A stretch of DNA of 64,000 bases from a bacterium (GTDB taxonomy: Bacteria > Patescibacteriota > Microgenomatia > UBA1400 > UBA12108). Every line of letters begins with the position of its first letter. Position 1 is the first letter of the stretch. The stretch spans positions 42,752 through 106,751 of the forward strand of contig JBDRPO010000016.1 of NCBI GenBank assembly GCA_043827085.1, read 5' to 3'. Below, piece after piece: positions 2,545-12,229 of this stretch. The notes under the pieces are model-generated. The model did not search any database, was not told the DNA's origin, and saw only the letters and a program-made list of their open reading frames with translations. The translations under genes were made by a program, and so were the position numbers.

Positions 2545-3372
2545 ATGTTAAAAGCCAAAAATCCTACTTCTGCCGGTGTTCGCCATCAAGTCGATTTTGA
2601 TCGTGGCTTGACCGCCAGTAGTCCCGAGAAATCCCTGACTGTCGCCAAAAAGCAAAACTCCGGGAGAAATAATCATGGCCACGTCACCACTCGTCATCGG
2701 GGCGGGGGAGAGAAACGCCGTTTGCGTCTCCTAGATTACAAACGCAACAAGCCAGGCATCGAAGCTCGTGTGGTTTCGATCGAATACGATCCCAATCGGA
2801 GTGCTAATATCGCTCTCCTCTATTACCGCGATGGTGAAAAACGCTACATTTTGGCTCCCGACGGCTTGACTGTGGACTCACTGATTGTTTCAGGTCCAGA
2901 TGCTGAACCCAAAGTCGGTAATTCCCTTCCCATGAAAAAAATCCCCATAGGGCTCCCCATCCACAATCTCGAACTTAAAGTAGGTCGTGGTGGCCAAATT
3001 GTTCGCTCTGCAGGCACTTTTTCCTTAATTCAATCCAAGGAAGGGGAATTTGTTACTGTCAAGCTCCCTTCAGGGGAAATAAGATTGCTTAAAGGTGAAT
3101 GTTTTGCTACAATCGGCCAGGTCTCTAATCTGGATCACAAGAACCGGAAAATAGGGAAAGCTGGGCGGAAACGCCACATGGGTTGGCGTCCAGCCGTTCG
3201 TGGTATCGCTCAGCACCCCGGGTCTCACCCCCACGGTGGTGGAGAGGGCAGGTCAGGCATCGGTATGCCAGGACCCAAGACTCCTTGGGGCAAACCCGCA
3301 CTTGGTAAAAAGACTAGAGGCCGCTACAAATACTCGAATAAATACATTATTAAAGGCAGGAGAGTGAAATAA
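2545..3372 (+). CDS. rplB: 50S ribosomal protein L2
   Basis: L2 motifs are present (GRNNHGHVTTRHRGGG, GGEGRSG). The start is taken at the ATG right after the rplW stop (MLKAKNPTSAG...). Confidence 0.95.
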   Translation: MLKAKNPTSAGVRHQVDFDRGLTASSPEKSLTVAKKQNSGRNNHGHVTTRHRGGGEKRRLRLLDYKRNKPGIEARVVSIEYDPNRSANIALLYYRDGEKRYILAPDGLTVDSLIVSGPDAEPKVGNSLPMKKIPIGLPIHNLELKVGRGGQIVRSAGTFSLIQSKEGEFVTVKLPSGEIRLLKGECFATIGQVSNLDHKNRKIGKAGRKRHMGWRPAVRGIAQHPGSHPHGGGEGRSGIGMPGPKTPWGKPALGKKTRGRYKYSNKYIIKGRRVK

Positions 3373-5933: not shown

Positions 5934-6233
5934 ATGAAAAAATTTAAGAAAGGGGACATCGTCCTCGTCACCGGCGGCAAAGACAAGGGCAAAACCGGCG
6001 AAATCATGAGGGTCTTCCCCAAAAAAGACACGGTTATCGTCAAAGGCGCCAATATGTACAAAAAGCACGTCAAACCCACCCAAAATACTCAGGGCGGCAT
6101 GGTAGCCAAAGAACGCCCACTTTCGACCGGTAAAATTATGCTCACAGTAGCAGGTAAACCAGTACGGGTTGGCCTTAAGGTTGAGAAGTCAGGCACCGTC
6201 CGCATCAACAAAAAGACCGGAGGAAAGATATGA
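5934..6233 (+). CDS. rplX: 50S ribosomal protein L24
   Basis: KOW-motif L24 sequence (KKGDIVLVTGGKDKGKTGEI). Confidence 0.92.
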   Translation: MKKFKKGDIVLVTGGKDKGKTGEIMRVFPKKDTVIVKGANMYKKHVKPTQNTQGGMVAKERPLSTGKIMLTVAGKPVRVGLKVEKSGTVRINKKTGGKI

Positions 6234-6787
6234 CCGTCGATGCCAATCTAAAGACTCGTTTCGAAACCGACTATAGTCTCAAGCTCATGCAAGAGCTGGG
6301 ACTTAAAAACAAGTTGGCTACGCCTCGCCTGTCCAAAATCATTCTCAACGTCGGCATCTCCAAATCCGACAGCTCCACTAAAGACGTCGAAGTAGTAAAA
6401 GGTGAGCTTGCTGCTTTGTCTGGTCTCTCACCCAAAGTGGGAGGCGCCAAGCAATCTATCGCCGGTTTTAAGATTCGCGCTGGCGACCCCGTCGGTGTGT
6501 CCGTGACTCTTCGCGGGGTAAAAATGTTTGATTTCCTCGATAAATTGTGTAGAATAGTGCTTCCGCAAGTTAAAGATTTTCGCGGAGTCAAAAGTACCGC
6601 TTTTGATGGTCACGGCAACTACACACTCGGACTCTCGGAACAGATAATTTTCCCCGAGATCGATTACGGGAAGACCGAAAAAATTCATGGTTTGGAGATC
6701 GTGATCGTCACGACCGCCAAAAATAATGAGGACGCTTACGCCCTCTTGAAAATACTCGGAATGCCTTTTGAAAAGGCGGATAAATAA
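6230..6787 (+). CDS. rplE: 50S ribosomal protein L5
   Basis: L5-like sequence in the conserved position. It shares an ATGA overlap with rplX. Confidence 0.93.
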
Positions 6788-6984: not shown

Positions 6985-7380
6985 ATGATTAACGACCACA
7001 TCTCCGACATGCTGACTCGCGTAAAAAATGCTTACGCCATGCACAAAAAAACCGTCTCCATGCCCTATACCAAAGTTATTGAATCTGTGGCTAAAGTCAT
7101 GGAAGATGAAAAGTACCTCTCCAAAGTCGAGGTGACTGGCGAAAAAGCAGCCGACAAAAAATTGGTTTTAACTCTCAGTTACAAATTGGATACCGCGGCA
7201 GTGAGTAGCGTCAAACGCATCTCCAAGCCAGGTGTCCGCATCTATCGTCCTCTCCACAGCTTCCGTCCTGTGCTCTCTGGTATGGGGATCGCGATTCTGA
7301 GTACTTCCAAAGGAATTATGTCTGACCGCCAAGCTAAAATTGCGGGTGTAGGAGGAGAAGTTCTCGCCGAACTTTGGTAA
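6985..7380 (+). CDS. rpsH: 30S ribosomal protein S8
   Basis: MINDHISDMLTRVKNAY is an S8 signature. The start is set at the internal ATG after rpsN. Confidence 0.93.
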   Translation: MINDHISDMLTRVKNAYAMHKKTVSMPYTKVIESVAKVMEDEKYLSKVEVTGEKAADKKLVLTLSYKLDTAAVSSVKRISKPGVRIYRPLHSFRPVLSGMGIAILSTSKGIMSDRQAKIAGVGGEVLAELW

Positions 7381-7384
7381 TCAT

Positions 7385-7933
7385 ATGTCAAAAATAGGTC
7401 GTCTACCCATCACCGTTCCTCCCACTGTTACCATCACGGTTAGCGGCAAAGTCGTCACGGTCAAAGGGCCAAAAGGTGAACTTTCCTTGAACATTCAACC
7501 CAAAATTAAACTTGAACAAACCGGCGATCAACTGGTCATTACCCGCGAGAGTGAAGATAAGCCAGTCCGCGCCCTTCATGGCATGACTCGCGCCTTGCTC
7601 TCCAATATGGTTAAAGGCGTGACCGATGGTTTCACCAAAAATCTCGAACTCGTTGGCACAGGGTATCGCGCACGTATGAACGGTAAAACCATTGTCCTTT
7701 CTCTCGGTTTCTCTCACGAAATCGAATTTGTTCCGCCTCAGGGTATCGAAATTAAAGTCGAGGGCACCAACGTTATCACGATCACAGGACGCGACATTCA
7801 AGCCGTCGGTCAAGTCGCCGCTGTCATCAGATCATACAGAAAACCCGAGCCCTACAAAGGTAAGGGTATCCGCTACGCCGGAGAAGTTGTGCGTAGGAAA
7901 GCCGGTAAAGCCGCCAAAGCCGCTGTCGCCTAA
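7385..7933 (+). CDS. rplF: 50S ribosomal protein L6
   Basis: L6-like two-domain sequence in the conserved position. Confidence 0.93.
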   Translation: MSKIGRLPITVPPTVTITVSGKVVTVKGPKGELSLNIQPKIKLEQTGDQLVITRESEDKPVRALHGMTRALLSNMVKGVTDGFTKNLELVGTGYRARMNGKTIVLSLGFSHEIEFVPPQGIEIKVEGTNVITITGRDIQAVGQVAAVIRSYRKPEPYKGKGIRYAGEVVRRKAGKAAKAAVA

Positions 7934-7945
7934 TAAATAATAAAT

Positions 7946-8290
7946 ATGAAAAAACTAGTATCTAAACAGTCACGCATCACTCGAGTCCGCGCCAGTCTCA
8001 AAAGTTCTGGTCGTCCCCGCCTTACCCTTTTCCGCTCTAACGAGCATCTTTGGGCTCAAATTATCGACGATGCATCCGGTAAAACTATAGTCTCCGTAAG
8101 CACCAAGACTATTACAAGTAAAAAAGGTGACACGAAAACTGTTCGCGCTGGCATAGTTGGCACAGAAATCGCGCGTCTTGCTCTCGCCAAAAAACTTAAA
8201 CAAATAGTATTCGATCGTGGCGCATATAAATATCATGGTCGTGTCAAAGCCGTAGCTGATGCGGCCCGTGCCGGCGGACTGGAGTTCTAA
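7946..8290 (+). CDS. rplR: 50S ribosomal protein L18
   Basis: L18-like sequence ([20 protein letters not shown]). Confidence 0.9.
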
Positions 8291-8840: not shown

Positions 8841-9287
8841 ATGCAACTAAACTTACTCCCCAAACTATCCGCCCGCAAAAACAAGCGCCTCGGCCATGGC
8901 TATGGCTCGGGAAAAGGTGGACACACCAGTAGTCGCGGTCAAAAAGGACAAAAGTCCAGGAACCACGTCCGCTTATCATTTACCGGCTCCTCTTGGGTTT
9001 GGTTCAAGCGTTTACCCTTTATGCGAGGGAAAAGTCGTTTTAACTCATTTGGCAAGCGCGCCCTCATCAACCTCTCATCCCTCAATGTATTCCCCGCTGG
9101 TTCAGTCATTACAATGGAAAAGCTCATCGAAGCCAAAATTATCTCCAAAAATCAGGCCACCATCTCTAGGGTTAAAATTGTCGGTACGGGAGAACTCACC
9201 AAAAAACTCAAAGTCATGATTCCGGCGACGACTAGTGCCGTCAAAGCCATCATAGCCGCTAAAGGGGAGTACAGTGGACAAGATTAG
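8841..9287 (+). CDS. rplO: 50S ribosomal protein L15
   Basis: [24 protein letters not shown] is an L15 signature. It directly follows rpsE with no L30 gene between them. Confidence 0.92.
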
Positions 9288-10560
9288 AGAATTTTTCTCA
9301 ACCTTAAAATCCAACCGCGAACTGCGGACTAGACTCTTAGTAACCCTATTTATTTTTGCTATCTTCCGTTTTGTCACCCACATCCCCGTGCCGGGAGTGA
9401 ATCTCGAAGCCATCAAACAAGTCTTCGCTTCCAATCAACTACTGTCACTTCTTGACGTCTTTTCTGGTGGTACTCTCGCCAACTTTTCCATCCTTGCTCT
9501 AGGCTTAAATCCCTATATCAACGCCTCTATCATTATGCAGCTCATGACCATGATTAACCCCAAGCTAGAAGAGATGCAAAAAGAAGGGGAGACTGGCCAG
9601 AACGTGATTAATGGGTATACCCGGATGCTCGCTGTCCCTCTCTCGATCATGCAAAGCGCCGCCATGTTTATGCTTCTCAAAAATAGTTCGCTGGTCACCG
9701 CAAGTAACCCTCTCGCGATTGTCACGCTCCTTGCGACCATGGCCGCCGGCAGCATCTTCCTCATGTGGCTAGGAGAGAACTTAACCGAGTACGGCATTGG
9801 CAACGGCATCTCCCTTCTCATTTTTGCCGGTATCGTCGGCCGCCTTCCCGTTACTTTCCTCCATACCAGCGCTACGTTCTCGACAGTTAATTCCGCCAGT
9901 ATGATTACTCTTGGCCTTCTTGGCTTATTTGTTATTTATGCAATCGTCGCAATCGACGAAGCCAAACGCCAGATCCCCGTCTCCTACTCGCGCCGCATCC
10001 GTGGTGGAAAAGACGTGGGTGGTGGCACGACGTACCTCCCGATCAAGCTCAATAATGCCGGCGTGATCCCGATTATCTTTGCGATCGCCTTGGTTTTGGC
10101 CCCGAGTATGCTCGCCAACGTCCTCAAAGGAGTCGCCAATTCGACAGTTGCGGGAGCTGCCGCTAGTTTCGCAGCCTGGTTTACCCCAACCTCTATCGCC
10201 TACAACGTCTTCTATTTCATCATGGTCGTGAGCTTTACCTATTTCTATACGGCGGTCGTTTTCGACACCGACAAAATTAGCGATCAGCTCAAACAAAATG
10301 GTGGCTACGTCCCTGGAATCCGCCCCGGCAAAGAGACCTCCAAATACCTAAGCTACATCGTCAAACGTACTACCTTAGCAGGCGCTCTCTTCCTTGGCGC
10401 TATTGCGGTTATGCCAAGTATCATTCAAGGCATGACCGGCATTACCAGTCTCACGATCGGCGGTACCAGTATCTTGATCGTCGTCTCTGTCGTCCTCGAG
10501 ACTTACCGCAAGACCCAGTCCTATCAAGTCGCCCGTAGCTATGATTCGTTTATCAGATAA
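9274..10560 (+). CDS. secY: Preprotein translocase subunit SecY
   Basis: A 10-TM protein with SecY-like sequence (plug and hinge regions) in the conserved position after rplO. Confidence 0.95.
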
Positions 10561-10582
10561 ATATATTATTGAAAGGAAAATC

Positions 10583-10801
10583 ATGTCCAAAAATATCATT
10601 TTCTATGCCCCCGAAGGCGCCGGTAAAACCACTCAGGCCAAAATGTTGGCCGAAAAGTTGGGCATTCCTTGCCAACCCTCCGGCGATTTAGTTCGCCGCA
10701 TGGCCGAGCAAGACAAGGGAATCATGGGTGAAACACTATCACTCCGGGTGACTATCACCCCGGGTGACTATCACCCCGGGTGTGTTAGCCTGGTAATTTA
10801 A
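10583..10801 (+). pseudogene. Adenylate kinase N-terminal fragment (~52 aa of Adk homology) that reads through tandem repeats
   Basis: MSKNIIFYAPEGAGKTTQAKMLAEKLGIPCQPSGDLVRRMAEQDKGIMGE matches the Adk P-loop and NMP-binding start. Homology then stops, and the rest of the ORF is encoded by 3x16-bp repeats. Confidence 0.6.
10735..10782 (+). repeat. Tandem direct repeat, 3 x 16 bp (ACTATCAC[T/C]CCGGGTG)
   Basis: Seen directly: actatcactccgggtg actatcaccccgggtg actatcaccccgggtg. Confidence 0.9.
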
Positions 10802-10810
10802 CCCGTTTTA

Positions 10811-10839
10811 ATATCACACACCCGGTGAGTGTGTGATAT
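10811..10839. repeat. Perfect palindrome ATATCACACAC-ccggtga-GTGTGTGATAT (11-bp stem) followed by TTTTCAT. Possible terminator or recombination site.
   Basis: Seen directly. The loop carries CCGGTGA, which is related to the adjacent repeat unit. Confidence 0.8.
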
Positions 10840-10930
10840 TTTCATACTTGACCTTTCCATTCGCCTTGATTGCGCTATAATATCTAAGTTCCATCATCAC
10901 TCGTTCACTTTATTTAGGAGATATAGTTCT

Positions 10931-11470
10931 ATGAAGATAATTTTGATTGGCATTCAGGGCTCAGGCAAATCCACGCAGGGCAATTTGTTATACGATAAAT
11001 TAAAACTTCCCTACCTCTCAAGTGGTCATATCTTCCGCGAAATGACCAAGGAAAAAACTCCTCTTGGTAGATATCTCAAAGAAACTCTCAACGCAGGCGC
11101 TTTAGTCTCAGATGAAAAAACCATTCCCATCATCGAAGAATACTTAGCCAAGCCCGAGTACCAAAAAGGCTACATCCTCGACGGTTTCCCTCGGACAACC
11201 AAACAAGCTCAAGAGTTTAGTAATGGTGTTGATAAAGTCATCCATCTCAAGGTTTCCGACAAAGAAGCTCTCTGGAGACTCTCTGGCCGCGTCGACGAAG
11301 GGGTAAGAGAAGATAACACCCTTGGGGCGATCCGCCAACGCATCAAACTTTTCCACGATGTCACTGAGCCAGTCCTCGATTTCTACCGCAGAGAAAACCG
11401 TCTCATTGAAGTTGATGGCGAGCGCGACATCGAGACCATCCATCAAGACATCATCTCGCAATTGAAGTAA
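10931..11470 (+). CDS. adk: Adenylate kinase (complete, short form)
   Basis: MKIILIGIQGSGKSTQ... and GYILDGFPRTTKQAQEF are Adk motifs. A TATAAT -10 element lies at 10876-10881 upstream. Confidence 0.9.
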   Translation: MKIILIGIQGSGKSTQGNLLYDKLKLPYLSSGHIFREMTKEKTPLGRYLKETLNAGALVSDEKTIPIIEEYLAKPEYQKGYILDGFPRTTKQAQEFSNGVDKVIHLKVSDKEALWRLSGRVDEGVREDNTLGAIRQRIKLFHDVTEPVLDFYRRENRLIEVDGERDIETIHQDIISQLK

Positions 11471-11473
11471 TTT

Positions 11474-12229
11474 ATGAACAAGCTTGACGCGATGCAGACA
11501 GGTGGGAAAATCCTCGGCAAAGTCCGCCAACGCCTGTATGACTTTACCCAAGTTGGAGTCACTCCCAAACAAATCGAGTTTAAAGCTCGGGAACTCATCA
11601 AAGCCGAGGGTGGTGAATTAAGTTTTAGCAAAGTCCCCGGGTATCGCTGGGCCACTTGTGTTAATCTCAATAGTGGCATCGTCCACGGCATCCCGACGAG
11701 TGAACAACCTCTCAAGGACGGTGATCTCGTCACCGTCGACATTGGCGTCTATTACCGTGGGTTTCACACCGATGCTTGCTTTAGTAAGGTGGTAGGAACC
11801 TCTAATTCAGAAAAACAACGTTTTCTTAAAGCTGGTCTAGAGGGGCTCAAAAACGCTGTTGCCTCCGTCAAAACAGGGAATCGTATCGGCGATATCACCC
11901 TCGCCATGGACTCTACCCTGAAAAAGTATGGCTACTCTGGTACTCGTGAGCTGACCGGACACGGTGTGGGGCGGCAGCTCCACGAAGACCCCATGATTAG
12001 CAATGTAGTTCTCACTCCTCGCGACAAAACTCCTCTTATGGCCGTCGGCCAGACTCTTGCCATCGAAATTATTTATGTCCAGGGGAAACCTGGTCTCGTA
12101 CTCGAGGAAGATGGCTGGACAATTAGTGCTAAAGATGGTACACTTTCAGCCGTATTCGAAGAGACCGTCGTCGTAGAAGACGACGGCTGTTCTATTTTGA
12201 CCACTCCTACATTGTTTCAGATCGTTTAA
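11474..12229 (+). CDS. map: Methionine aminopeptidase type I
   Basis: MAP metal-binding residue context is present (DLVTVDIGVYYRGFHTD, HGVGRQLHE, LAIE). Confidence 0.93.
   Translation: MNKLDAMQTGGKILGKVRQRLYDFTQVGVTPKQIEFKARELIKAEGGELSFSKVPGYRWATCVNLNSGIVHGIPTSEQPLKDGDLVTVDIGVYYRGFHTDACFSKVVGTSNSEKQRFLKAGLEGLKNAVASVKTGNRIGDITLAMDSTLKKYGYSGTRELTGHGVGRQLHEDPMISNVVLTPRDKTPLMAVGQTLAIEIIYVQGKPGLVLEEDGWTISAKDGTLSAVFEETVVVEDDGCSILTTPTLFQIV

Follow-up and report, generated by a model that had tools for sequence, protein, structure and literature searches.

Organization of the junction between secY and adk

The stretch of DNA described here, referred to as the window, comprises 64,000 nucleotides of contig JBDRPO010000016.1 (positions 42,752 to 106,751, forward strand) from a small-genome member of the Patescibacteriota (Microgenomatia, UBA1400, UBA12108; NCBI GenBank assembly GCA_043827085.1). 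The subject of this analysis is the junction between secY and the adenylate kinase gene adk. The genes at this site, on the forward strand from secY to map, follow the order rplR-rpsE-rplO-secY-ORF-adk2-map, in which the open reading frame (ORF) behind secY is the stump of one adenylate kinase gene (adk1) and adk2 is a complete and different one, found 200 bp downstream of the stump. The conserved left flank of this variable junction is secY (9274–10560, 428 aa; Pfam SecY, 1.6e-100), and the conserved right flank is map, which encodes methionine aminopeptidase (11474–12229; Pfam Peptidase_M24, 1.3e-37).

The ORF is separated from secY by a 22-bp spacer (10561–10582) that carries the ribosome-binding site GAAAGGAAAATC. 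This spacer is of a tight, "no-insert" type: it is homologous to the 23-bp secY-adk2 spacer TAAATATTATTGAAAGGATGATA of a related locus (L010) and resembles the tight spacers of adk1 outgroups. The ORF (10583–10801) encodes 72 aa. Its first 50 codons (MSKNIIFYAPEGAGKTTQAKMLAEKLGIPCQPSGDLVRRMAEQDKGIMGE) correspond to the P-loop N-terminus of a nucleoside monophosphate kinase, with the motif GAGKTTQ, and its tail consists of translated repeat and module sequence, both described below. The likeness to Adk stops at codon 50 (GAA, 10730–10732). The adk1 remnant (10583–10737) is secure to position 10732 and possibly extends to 10737 (GAAACACT), following a 12-nt deletion of the ICRE codons. In profile searches, the 72-aa sequence matches Pfam AAA_17 (6e-8) and ADK (3e-4), the latter with 21.3 bits relative to a gathering cutoff of 26.8 and over only positions 4–43 of the 151 in PF00406; the top NCBIfam matches are all adenylate kinase. 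The product is a fragment and not an enzyme. The rest of adk1, including the DGFPR motif, the LID and the C-terminal parts, was not found anywhere in the 64-kb window.

Three tandem 16-bp units of the sequence ACTATCAC(T/C)CCGGGTG follow at 10735–10782 (Tandem Repeats Finder, period 16, 3.0 copies). The score of this array, 89, is the highest in the window, and its exactly periodic stretch measures 39 nt. The 16-mer has three matches in the window, versus 0.04 expected, and occurs nowhere outside the array. The last unit plus a linker (…GGGTGTGTTAGCCTGGTAATTTAACCCGTTTT), at 10767–10809, is homologous to four relatives with which it was aligned (L088, L005, L007 and L089). Between 10784 and 10801, stop codons are present in all three forward frames (TAG at 10785–10787, TAA at 10794–10796 and TAA at 10799–10801), so that the stump ORF ends before the downstream hairpin in whichever frame the number of repeats sets. 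This hairpin, designated hairpin 1 (10810–10840), is an inverted repeat with perfect 12-bp arms and a 7-nt loop. It is followed by a candidate sigma-70-like promoter (TTTCCA-16 nt-TATAAT, 10854–10881, 10 of 12 consensus positions) within the conserved block GATTGCGCTATAATATCTAAGTT, by a 5′ leader common to adk2 relatives (10882–10930) with the ribosome-binding site AGGAG (10916–10920), and by adk2 itself (10931–11470), a complete short-type adenylate kinase gene of 179 codons (Pfam ADK, 9.7e-35). The first-pass annotation had listed an Adk fragment, a threefold 16-bp repeat, a palindrome, a TATAAT box and a second adk here, and each of these is present in its place. Three details required adjustment: the fragment had been given as about 52 aa, the perfect palindrome has arms of 12 rather than 11 nt, and the second, full-length Adk starts at 10931 rather than 10932.

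Two adenylate kinase types share one slot among relatives

Loci for comparison, designated by L numbers, came from SecY-anchored scans of species-representative genomes and metagenome contigs and number 160. By their record titles, the closest are Microgenomates (Woese- and Levybacteria-like members of the Candidate Phyla Radiation, CPR). In about 30 of them, whose SecY shares 69–90% identity with that of the window, the slot between secY and map is filled by one of two short Adk types. The adk1 type (191–192 aa) is present in L003, L006, L011, L013, L014, L083, L088–L093, L102 and L105, and the adk2 type (179 aa) in L004, L005, L007, L008, L010, L012, L085 and L087. The two types are approximately 35% identical, and both score above the Pfam ADK threshold. 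Intact adk1 relatives were obtained only from the SecY-anchored scans; a word-indexed protein search with the fragment gave two matches.

Over its 50 codons, the stump shares 72–84% aa identity with the intact 191–192-aa adk1 of L003, L006, L013 and L014 (tblastn and codon alignment), and it is also homologous to adk1 of L083, L088, L089 and L105. Its identity to the adk2 protein is 38% over 39 alignable aa. The stump occupies the tight, ancestral place right behind secY, as adk1 does in the outgroups, and its GC content at third codon positions is 0.60, with 0.61 for secY, 0.52 for adk2 and 0.50 for map. Judged by these alignments, the stump is of the adk1 type. A stump combined with an intact gene of the other type is found only in the window and in one further contig (L002, below) among all loci.

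The downstream gene is a full-length match to the ADK profile that covers the P-loop, the NMP-binding region and the short LID, with a score of 120 bits relative to the cutoff of 26.8; the intact adk1 of L014 reaches 115 bits. For both types, the top NCBIfam matches are adenylate kinase models, although below their equivalog cutoffs. The adk2 of the window is 82–87% identical to that of L004, L005, L007, L008, L010 and L087 and 63–68% identical to that of Levy- and Roizmanbacteria, and its 5′ leader is 80–88% identical to that of L004, L005, L007, L008 and L087. From this sequence evidence, adk2 is presumably the functional copy.

The distribution of the two types does not follow the SecY phylogeny. 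In a neighbor-joining tree of SecY, the family-level outgroups nearly all carry adk1, whereas the types are interleaved in the crown group (84–90% identity), where for example L087 groups with L083 and L008 with L003. The distant Levy- and Roizmanbacteria mostly carry adk2, and L103 carries adk1 (63%). The corresponding Map tree shows more clustering by adk type than the SecY tree, as an exchange of adk segments, with or without map, would give. The same slot therefore holds two non-sister homologues whose type is incongruent with the SecY tree. In a separate observation, the distance from the end of secY to map is about 1.1–1.37 kb in a Levy- and Roizmanbacteria-like clade (L016–L023, L094, L100 and L103) compared to about 0.6–0.7 kb, which indicates an extra 600–700 bp or so between adk and map.

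Based on these comparisons, we consider the locus, with a probability of roughly 80%, to be the scar of an in situ displacement of adk1 by the deeply divergent adk2, within a genus-level clade of Microgenomates in which the secY-adk junction is hypervariable. The replacement footprint that had been suspected in the secY-adk-map operon is thus borne out, in that relatives hold either adk1 or adk2 in the slot and the stump together with adk2 occurs only in this strain.

The joint and the variable repeat

In the codon alignment with intact adk1 genes, homology runs through GGT GAA (10727–10732). Beyond this GAA, ATT TGT CGC GAA ACA CTC (ICRETL) follows in the relatives and ACA CTA TCA in the window; the latter bases belong either to the module or, for 5 nt more, to an adk1 that lost 12 nt between GAAA repeats. 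The homology of the module to L088 begins at 10735 and the homology to adk1 ends between 10732 and 10737; these limits would place the joint no more than about 5 nt from where the first repeat unit starts. As measured against L088 (TAA followed by ACTATCAC), the possible microhomology at the joint amounts to 3–4 nt at most (ACT/AAAC).

The repeat unit is found as a single copy in relatives. In L088, the 19-mer ACTATCACCCCGGGTGTGT is present once, is identical at 19 of 19 positions to the last unit of the window plus TGT, and starts where the stop codon of a 125-aa cargo gene ends; L005 contains a diverged single copy. The array of the window is thus the expanded form of the 16 nt with which the module begins. 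The stump ends in ...GGGTGAAAC (GGGTGA) and each unit in GGGTG; these bases, with which one unit closes and the next opens, could plausibly have seeded a slipped-strand expansion. A second tandem duplication, CGTCCTCGTAGGCT twice, is present in L005 about 100 bp upstream of adk2 at 3023, in the interval between hairpin 1 and the promoter, and indicates that slippage recurs in this intergenic region.

A second assembly contains the same arrangement. The fragment search match P0001 is located on L002, a 13.9-kb Logan contig (SRR26275510) with the same gene order; L002 was assembled separately from the window, and the two may share source reads. Over 13,932 aligned columns, the two sequences show 0 mismatches and a single 16-nt gap, which corresponds to two repeat units in L002 and three in the window, a comparison of repeat number between two assemblies. 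The repeat is the only variable site over the aligned 13.9 kb, and by this difference in copy number between otherwise identical sequences it is a variable-number tandem repeat (VNTR). As the exactly periodic stretch is only 39 nt long, neither count is likely to be an assembler artefact. Having one unit fewer shifts the frame of the ORF, such that the L002 product has 65 aa (P0001) instead of 72 aa with a different tail, an indication that the tail is unconstrained. An exact-protein look-up of adk2, performed to find more samples, gave no match, although L002 encodes the identical protein.

A conserved module upstream of adk

The repeat unit ACTATCACCCCGGGTG, the linker, hairpin 1 and the promoter constitute a noncoding module that, in relatives, is located downstream of assorted cargo genes and upstream of adk. 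Four elements recur between and after the cargo genes: the segment ACTATCACCCCGGGTGTGT with linker and hairpin 1 (AATATCACACAC-CCG-GTGTGTGATATT); a second palindrome (H2), TTCCGATGAATCGATTCATCGGAA; the segment CCTTCAAGG...CCTCGTAGG; and, directly upstream of adk of either type, the promoter block GTGCGCTATAATA.C..AGTT with a TTTCCA or TTCCCA −35 element. This block precedes adk in at least 10 relatives of both types (L003, L005–L008, L083, L085 and L087–L089). By its hexamers, spacing and positional conservation, TTTCCA-16-TATAAT is a predicted sigma-70-type promoter.

The arms of hairpin 1, AATATCACACAC (10810–10821) and GTGTGTGATATT (10829–10840), are 12 nt long, fully complementary and separated by the 7-nt loop. 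The stem has 12 bp, 5 of which are G-C pairs, and is followed by TTTC in the window and TTCC in relatives. The hairpin is kept in eight species. In their alignment, 94.8% of the cells are paired, and compensatory double changes have affected two pairs (C-G to U-A in L085 and L089; A-U to U-A in L088). Its conservation score was reached by 2 of 500 shuffles and collapsed in slid controls, and it is the centroid structure of the RNA fold. These results indicate that, at the level of sequence covariation, hairpin 1 is a real structured element; it is probably a terminator or an RNA 3′ stabilizer of the upstream operon. Its conservation in eight species, with compensatory changes, speaks for a functional element (terminator-like or an RNA 3′ structure) rather than a scar. 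The earlier proposal that repeat and hairpin form a recombination site consequently holds only insofar as the repeat marks the joint: in relatives, its unit is the single-copy start of the module and the hairpin is a conserved element.

The 16-mer, the hairpin arm and the promoter block have no other copy in the 64-kb window, as a search of the kind suggested by the first-pass annotation confirmed, and in relatives they are found only inside the secY-adk gap. Within this coverage of the window and the relatives' loci, the elements are not dispersed repeats of the repetitive extragenic palindromic or miniature inverted-repeat transposable element kind. The possibility that TAGCCTGGTA is the remnant of a transfer RNA D-arm marking an attachment site was also discarded: Rfam (E ≤ 10, junction) gave only chance microRNA and small RNA matches far below the gathering scores, and ARAGORN detected no tRNA or transfer-messenger RNA between 9000 and 13000. 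With respect to the second palindrome, the 29-nt copies (TTCCG-loop-CGGAA) of L004 (5316–5344) and L007 are 100% identical but oppositely oriented, the loop having undergone a small inversion between the arms of the stem. Inside this palindrome, a G+C-rich near-palindrome (CCCGCCTTGCCGGCGAGGCAGG) is present in L087 (2895–2925) and L089/L090 (approximately 6725–6755), and in these relatives only.

Cargo at the secY-adk junction

The secY-adk gaps of L003–L009, L083–L091 and L105 were compared. Crown-group gaps vary widely, with lengths of 23, 91 and 105 bp at the short end and 1.7 and 4.5 kb at the long end, whereas those of the outgroups measure 12–40 bp. The longer gaps contain HicAB toxin-antitoxin genes (L004, L088, L089 and L091), an EamA transporter gene (L005), a set comprising HEPN plus nucleotidyltransferase (MNT), a KilA-N protein and, by visual assignment, a putative HAD-like hydrolase (L085), and several ORFs without a Pfam match. 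The placement of the cargo varies relative to hairpin 1, H2 and the promoter; it is found in both orientations and often has its own promoters. The 4.5-kb secY-adk2 gap of L085 is especially rearranged. The last 61 nt of secY are present three times in this locus (6223–6283, 7010–7070 and 8107–8167; 80–89% identical), and an 89-bp direct repeat consisting of CCTTCAAGG...CCTCGTAGG and the promoter (7517–7605 and 10710–10798; 98% identical) surrounds 3.2 kb of cargo. Insertions that recurred with secY or the promoter module as their anchor would leave duplications of this appearance. L085 also carries an internally deleted copy of the 125-aa cargo gene.

Three smaller features of these loci were noted. 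In L091 (1472–2024), two copies of GCTATAATA, from the promoter −10 region, enclose hicB-hicA and resemble a 9-bp target duplication. The TATAAT box of L088 and L089 contains the hicA stop codon. In the window itself, secY starts with GTG and overlaps the 3′ end of rplO (8841–9287) by 14 nt (9274–9287).

The confinement of this hot spot to one genus could be explained if the terminator-like hairpin and the promoter split the operon and thereby create a gap that accepts insertions without polar effects. Homology arms would come from the two very conserved genes on either side.

Alternative origins of the locus

In a different origin of the locus, the secY-adk junction would be a dedicated gene-capture platform and not a passive hot spot. 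A recombinase acting in trans, either tyrosine/IntI-like or of a kind that recognizes hairpins in single-stranded DNA, would move cargo genes, including the replacement adk, as cassettes with hairpins and 16-mer as attachment sites. The cargo would be bounded by H1 (hairpin 1), H2 and a reusable promoter, and the enzyme would act at three targets: the 3′ end of secY, the module itself, and a position close to adk1 codons 45–50. Hairpins and promoter modules do lie between variable cargo in relatives and are repeated within L085, where the three secY 3′ ends resemble the product of repeated integration into the end of a gene; the 9-bp GCTATAATA duplication around hicAB in L091 would be a further trace. 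A third would be L001 (JGI 3300009285, 1181 bp), in which an ORF (173–499, P0002, the other match of the fragment search) fuses adk1 codons 1–45 in frame to 63 aa from the C-terminus of an integron-type integrase (best NCBIfam match TIGR02249, 5.8e-31). The adk1 part of L001 carries the adk1-type promoter and leader of L003 and L083, and the GC content rises from 0.35 to 0.65 at the joint and then settles at about 0.45. Either adk1 was broken a second time, independently and within 15 nt of the break in the window, or the contig is chimeric; as a single short contig with a jump in GC content, L001 may be the latter. Several further observations argue against capture by a site-specific recombinase. 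A tyrosine recombinase is present neither in the 64-kb window nor within approximately 5 kb of secY in 162 related loci: tblastn with the C-termini of IntI and XerD found none in the window (best E-value 0.1), and in the 162 loci only the L001 fragment itself. Pairs of attC-like cores (RYYYAAC...GTTRRRY) 40–160 bp apart are lacking around the cargo, both at the window junction and in the gaps of L004, L005, L007, L087, L088 and L089; L085 has one chance pair, inside a gene. The cargo has no fixed place with respect to H1, H2 and the promoter, lies in either orientation and often follows a promoter of its own, and the module has no further copies in the window. The suggestion of a cassette insertion in the first-pass annotation therefore finds no support here, and we regard site-specific capture as improbable.

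A slightly less probable proposal assigns a function to the stump ORF. As a leader or attenuator, its translation, or the pairing of CCGGGTGTGT (10776–10785) with ACACACCCGG (10816–10825), would control hairpin 1 and read-through into adk2-map, and the number of repeats would tune this control. In its favor, a good ribosome-binding site precedes the ORF, which terminates 9 nt short of hairpin 1; the alternative pairing is perfect over its 10 nt and forms part of the minimum-free-energy fold (fold z-score −3.7); and the stump shows no excess of nonsynonymous change. However, a short P-loop ORF that could be a conserved, ancestral leader is present in none of the relatives' loci. Where hairpin 1 has changed (ACATAC/GTATGT in L085 and L089), its upstream partner does not covary, and in L005 only 8 of the 10 positions pair. 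The two- and three-unit variants place the ORF tail in different frames, and the conserved promoter of adk2 downstream of the hairpin makes read-through unnecessary. Attenuation was rejected as the principal explanation on account of this lack of covariation in the alternative pairing. Least probable of all is an assembly artefact, in the form of a chimeric join of adk1 and adk2 strains or a mis-assembled repeat: although the window comes from a metagenome-assembled CPR genome, both adk types circulate among related species and the repeat count differs between the two assemblies, the joint is identical base for base in L002, ordinary reads or 31-mers span the 39-nt periodic stretch, and a chimera would not give a cut at codon 50 joined to a module whose neighbors adk2 and map are equally diverged from all sampled relatives. 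Both outcomes that the first-pass annotation had named as refuting its reading, an assembly error at the repeat and an ancestral leader peptide in relatives, thus fail to apply.

Probable displacement of adk1 by adk2

Displacement in situ is the reading that we retain, and its best form is displacement by illegitimate recombination or deletion followed by slippage. Two routes would lead to the present structure. In the first, incoming DNA carrying the module, promoter and adk2, anchored by homology in adk2, map or beyond, would have replaced adk1 codons 51–191; the left joint, illegitimate and at the level of microhomology inside adk1, would make this a case of homology-facilitated illegitimate recombination. 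In the second, a transient tandem of the order secY-adk1-...-module-adk2 would have lost the 3′ part of adk1 by deletion. The order of events and the choice between import and deletion are inferred, and the two routes do not appear to be separable, since neither a donor nor a tandem intermediate is present among the sampled loci. Subsequently, the first 16 nt of the module would have been expanded by slipped-strand mispairing, to three units here and to two in the sister population. At present, the spc-operon transcript would run through secY and a 72-codon junk ORF and be ended or stabilized at hairpin 1, while adk2, map, infA and the following genes would be driven by the conserved TTTCCA-16-TATAAT promoter. 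The stump peptide would be without function.

A number of observations weigh against this interpretation. The adk2 and map of the window are about as diverged from their relatives as secY is and bear no sign of recent import; consistent with this, adk2 is unremarkable in composition and gives no compositional import signal. The joint, with its short microhomology, cannot be placed to the base. No relative among the sampled loci has both intact genes, and none has an adk2 more than 87% identical to that of the window. The neighbor-joining trees are weak, being distance-based with short internal branches and without support values, and the number of switches between types is accordingly uncertain. 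Hairpin 1 is not a canonical terminator: its tail has four T here and none in relatives, and a terminator scan was silent. Finally, the stump shows no decay. Its 50 codons are intact, and the ratio of nonsynonymous to synonymous substitution rates (dN/dS) relative to intact adk1 is 0.03–0.07, the same as between intact genes, which fits a recent truncation and also selection on the stump. We infer that the truncation is recent relative to the divergence of the species, or that 50 codons give too little power. Pro32 of the stump had been taken as a sign of decay and was dropped, as this residue is also present in the intact adk1 of L089 and L105.

Comparison with known systems and significance

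The replacement of an essential gene in a conserved operon slot by a distant homologue, with flanks that stay in place and a type that conflicts with the species tree, corresponds to xenologous (non-orthologous) gene displacement in situ, which Omelchenko, Makarova, Wolf, Rogozin and Koonin reportedly described in 2003 for "mosaic operons". Classical cases of this kind were inferred from phylogeny alone, without a physical relic. In contrast, a 50-codon stump has been left at the locus described here, and the exchange is among congeneric species with several switches. The form of the joint would also fit homology-facilitated illegitimate recombination as known from naturally transformable bacteria (PMC3240628; PMC5361080 for the model and primary references): on one side, the conserved genes adk2, map and beyond continue without a break, and on the other, the resident gene ends at an abrupt joint with a few bases of possible microhomology. 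It differs in that deletion from a tandem of two adk genes would give the same structure here. At type VI secretion system effector/immunity loci and Rhs loci, sequential displacement leaves orphan gene fragments (PMC5361080). The secY 3′ ends of L085 and the adk1 stump of the window are analogous orphans, in a locus with conserved boundaries that gathers truncated remnants and shifted cargo. Here, however, the locus lies inside the ribosomal-protein/secY operon, the displaced gene encodes a housekeeping enzyme rather than a toxin module, and there is no evident arms race.

The likeness to integron cassettes and attC sites is limited to variable genes split by imperfect palindromes beside a fixed promoter and to the one related contig with an IntI-like fragment; unlike in integrons, there is no intI nearby, R″/R′ core sites are absent, and the cargo lies in both orientations with its own promoters. 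The 16-bp unit, present in three versus two copies in otherwise identical 13.9-kb sequences, behaves as other slipped-strand VNTR loci do, except that its position in the tail of a dead ORF means that no phase-variable product is expected. The repeat is usable as a strain-level marker.

The locus is a clear but ordinary recombination scar, and it adds an unusually legible new case to a type of event that is already known. The relic represents a physical intermediate in a process usually inferred from trees alone, in which an essential housekeeping gene gives way to a distant homologue and the operon neighbors remain undisturbed. Phylogenetic work makes wide use of the ribosomal-protein/secY/adk operon as a stable block of markers. 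The present results indicate that this operon is not inviolate in some CPR bacteria: in this genus, it is split by an internal terminator-like hairpin and a promoter, and the resulting gap collects toxin-antitoxin pairs and other cargo. Orthology of adk should therefore not be assumed in these lineages, in which two types of approximately 35% identity segregate among sister species.

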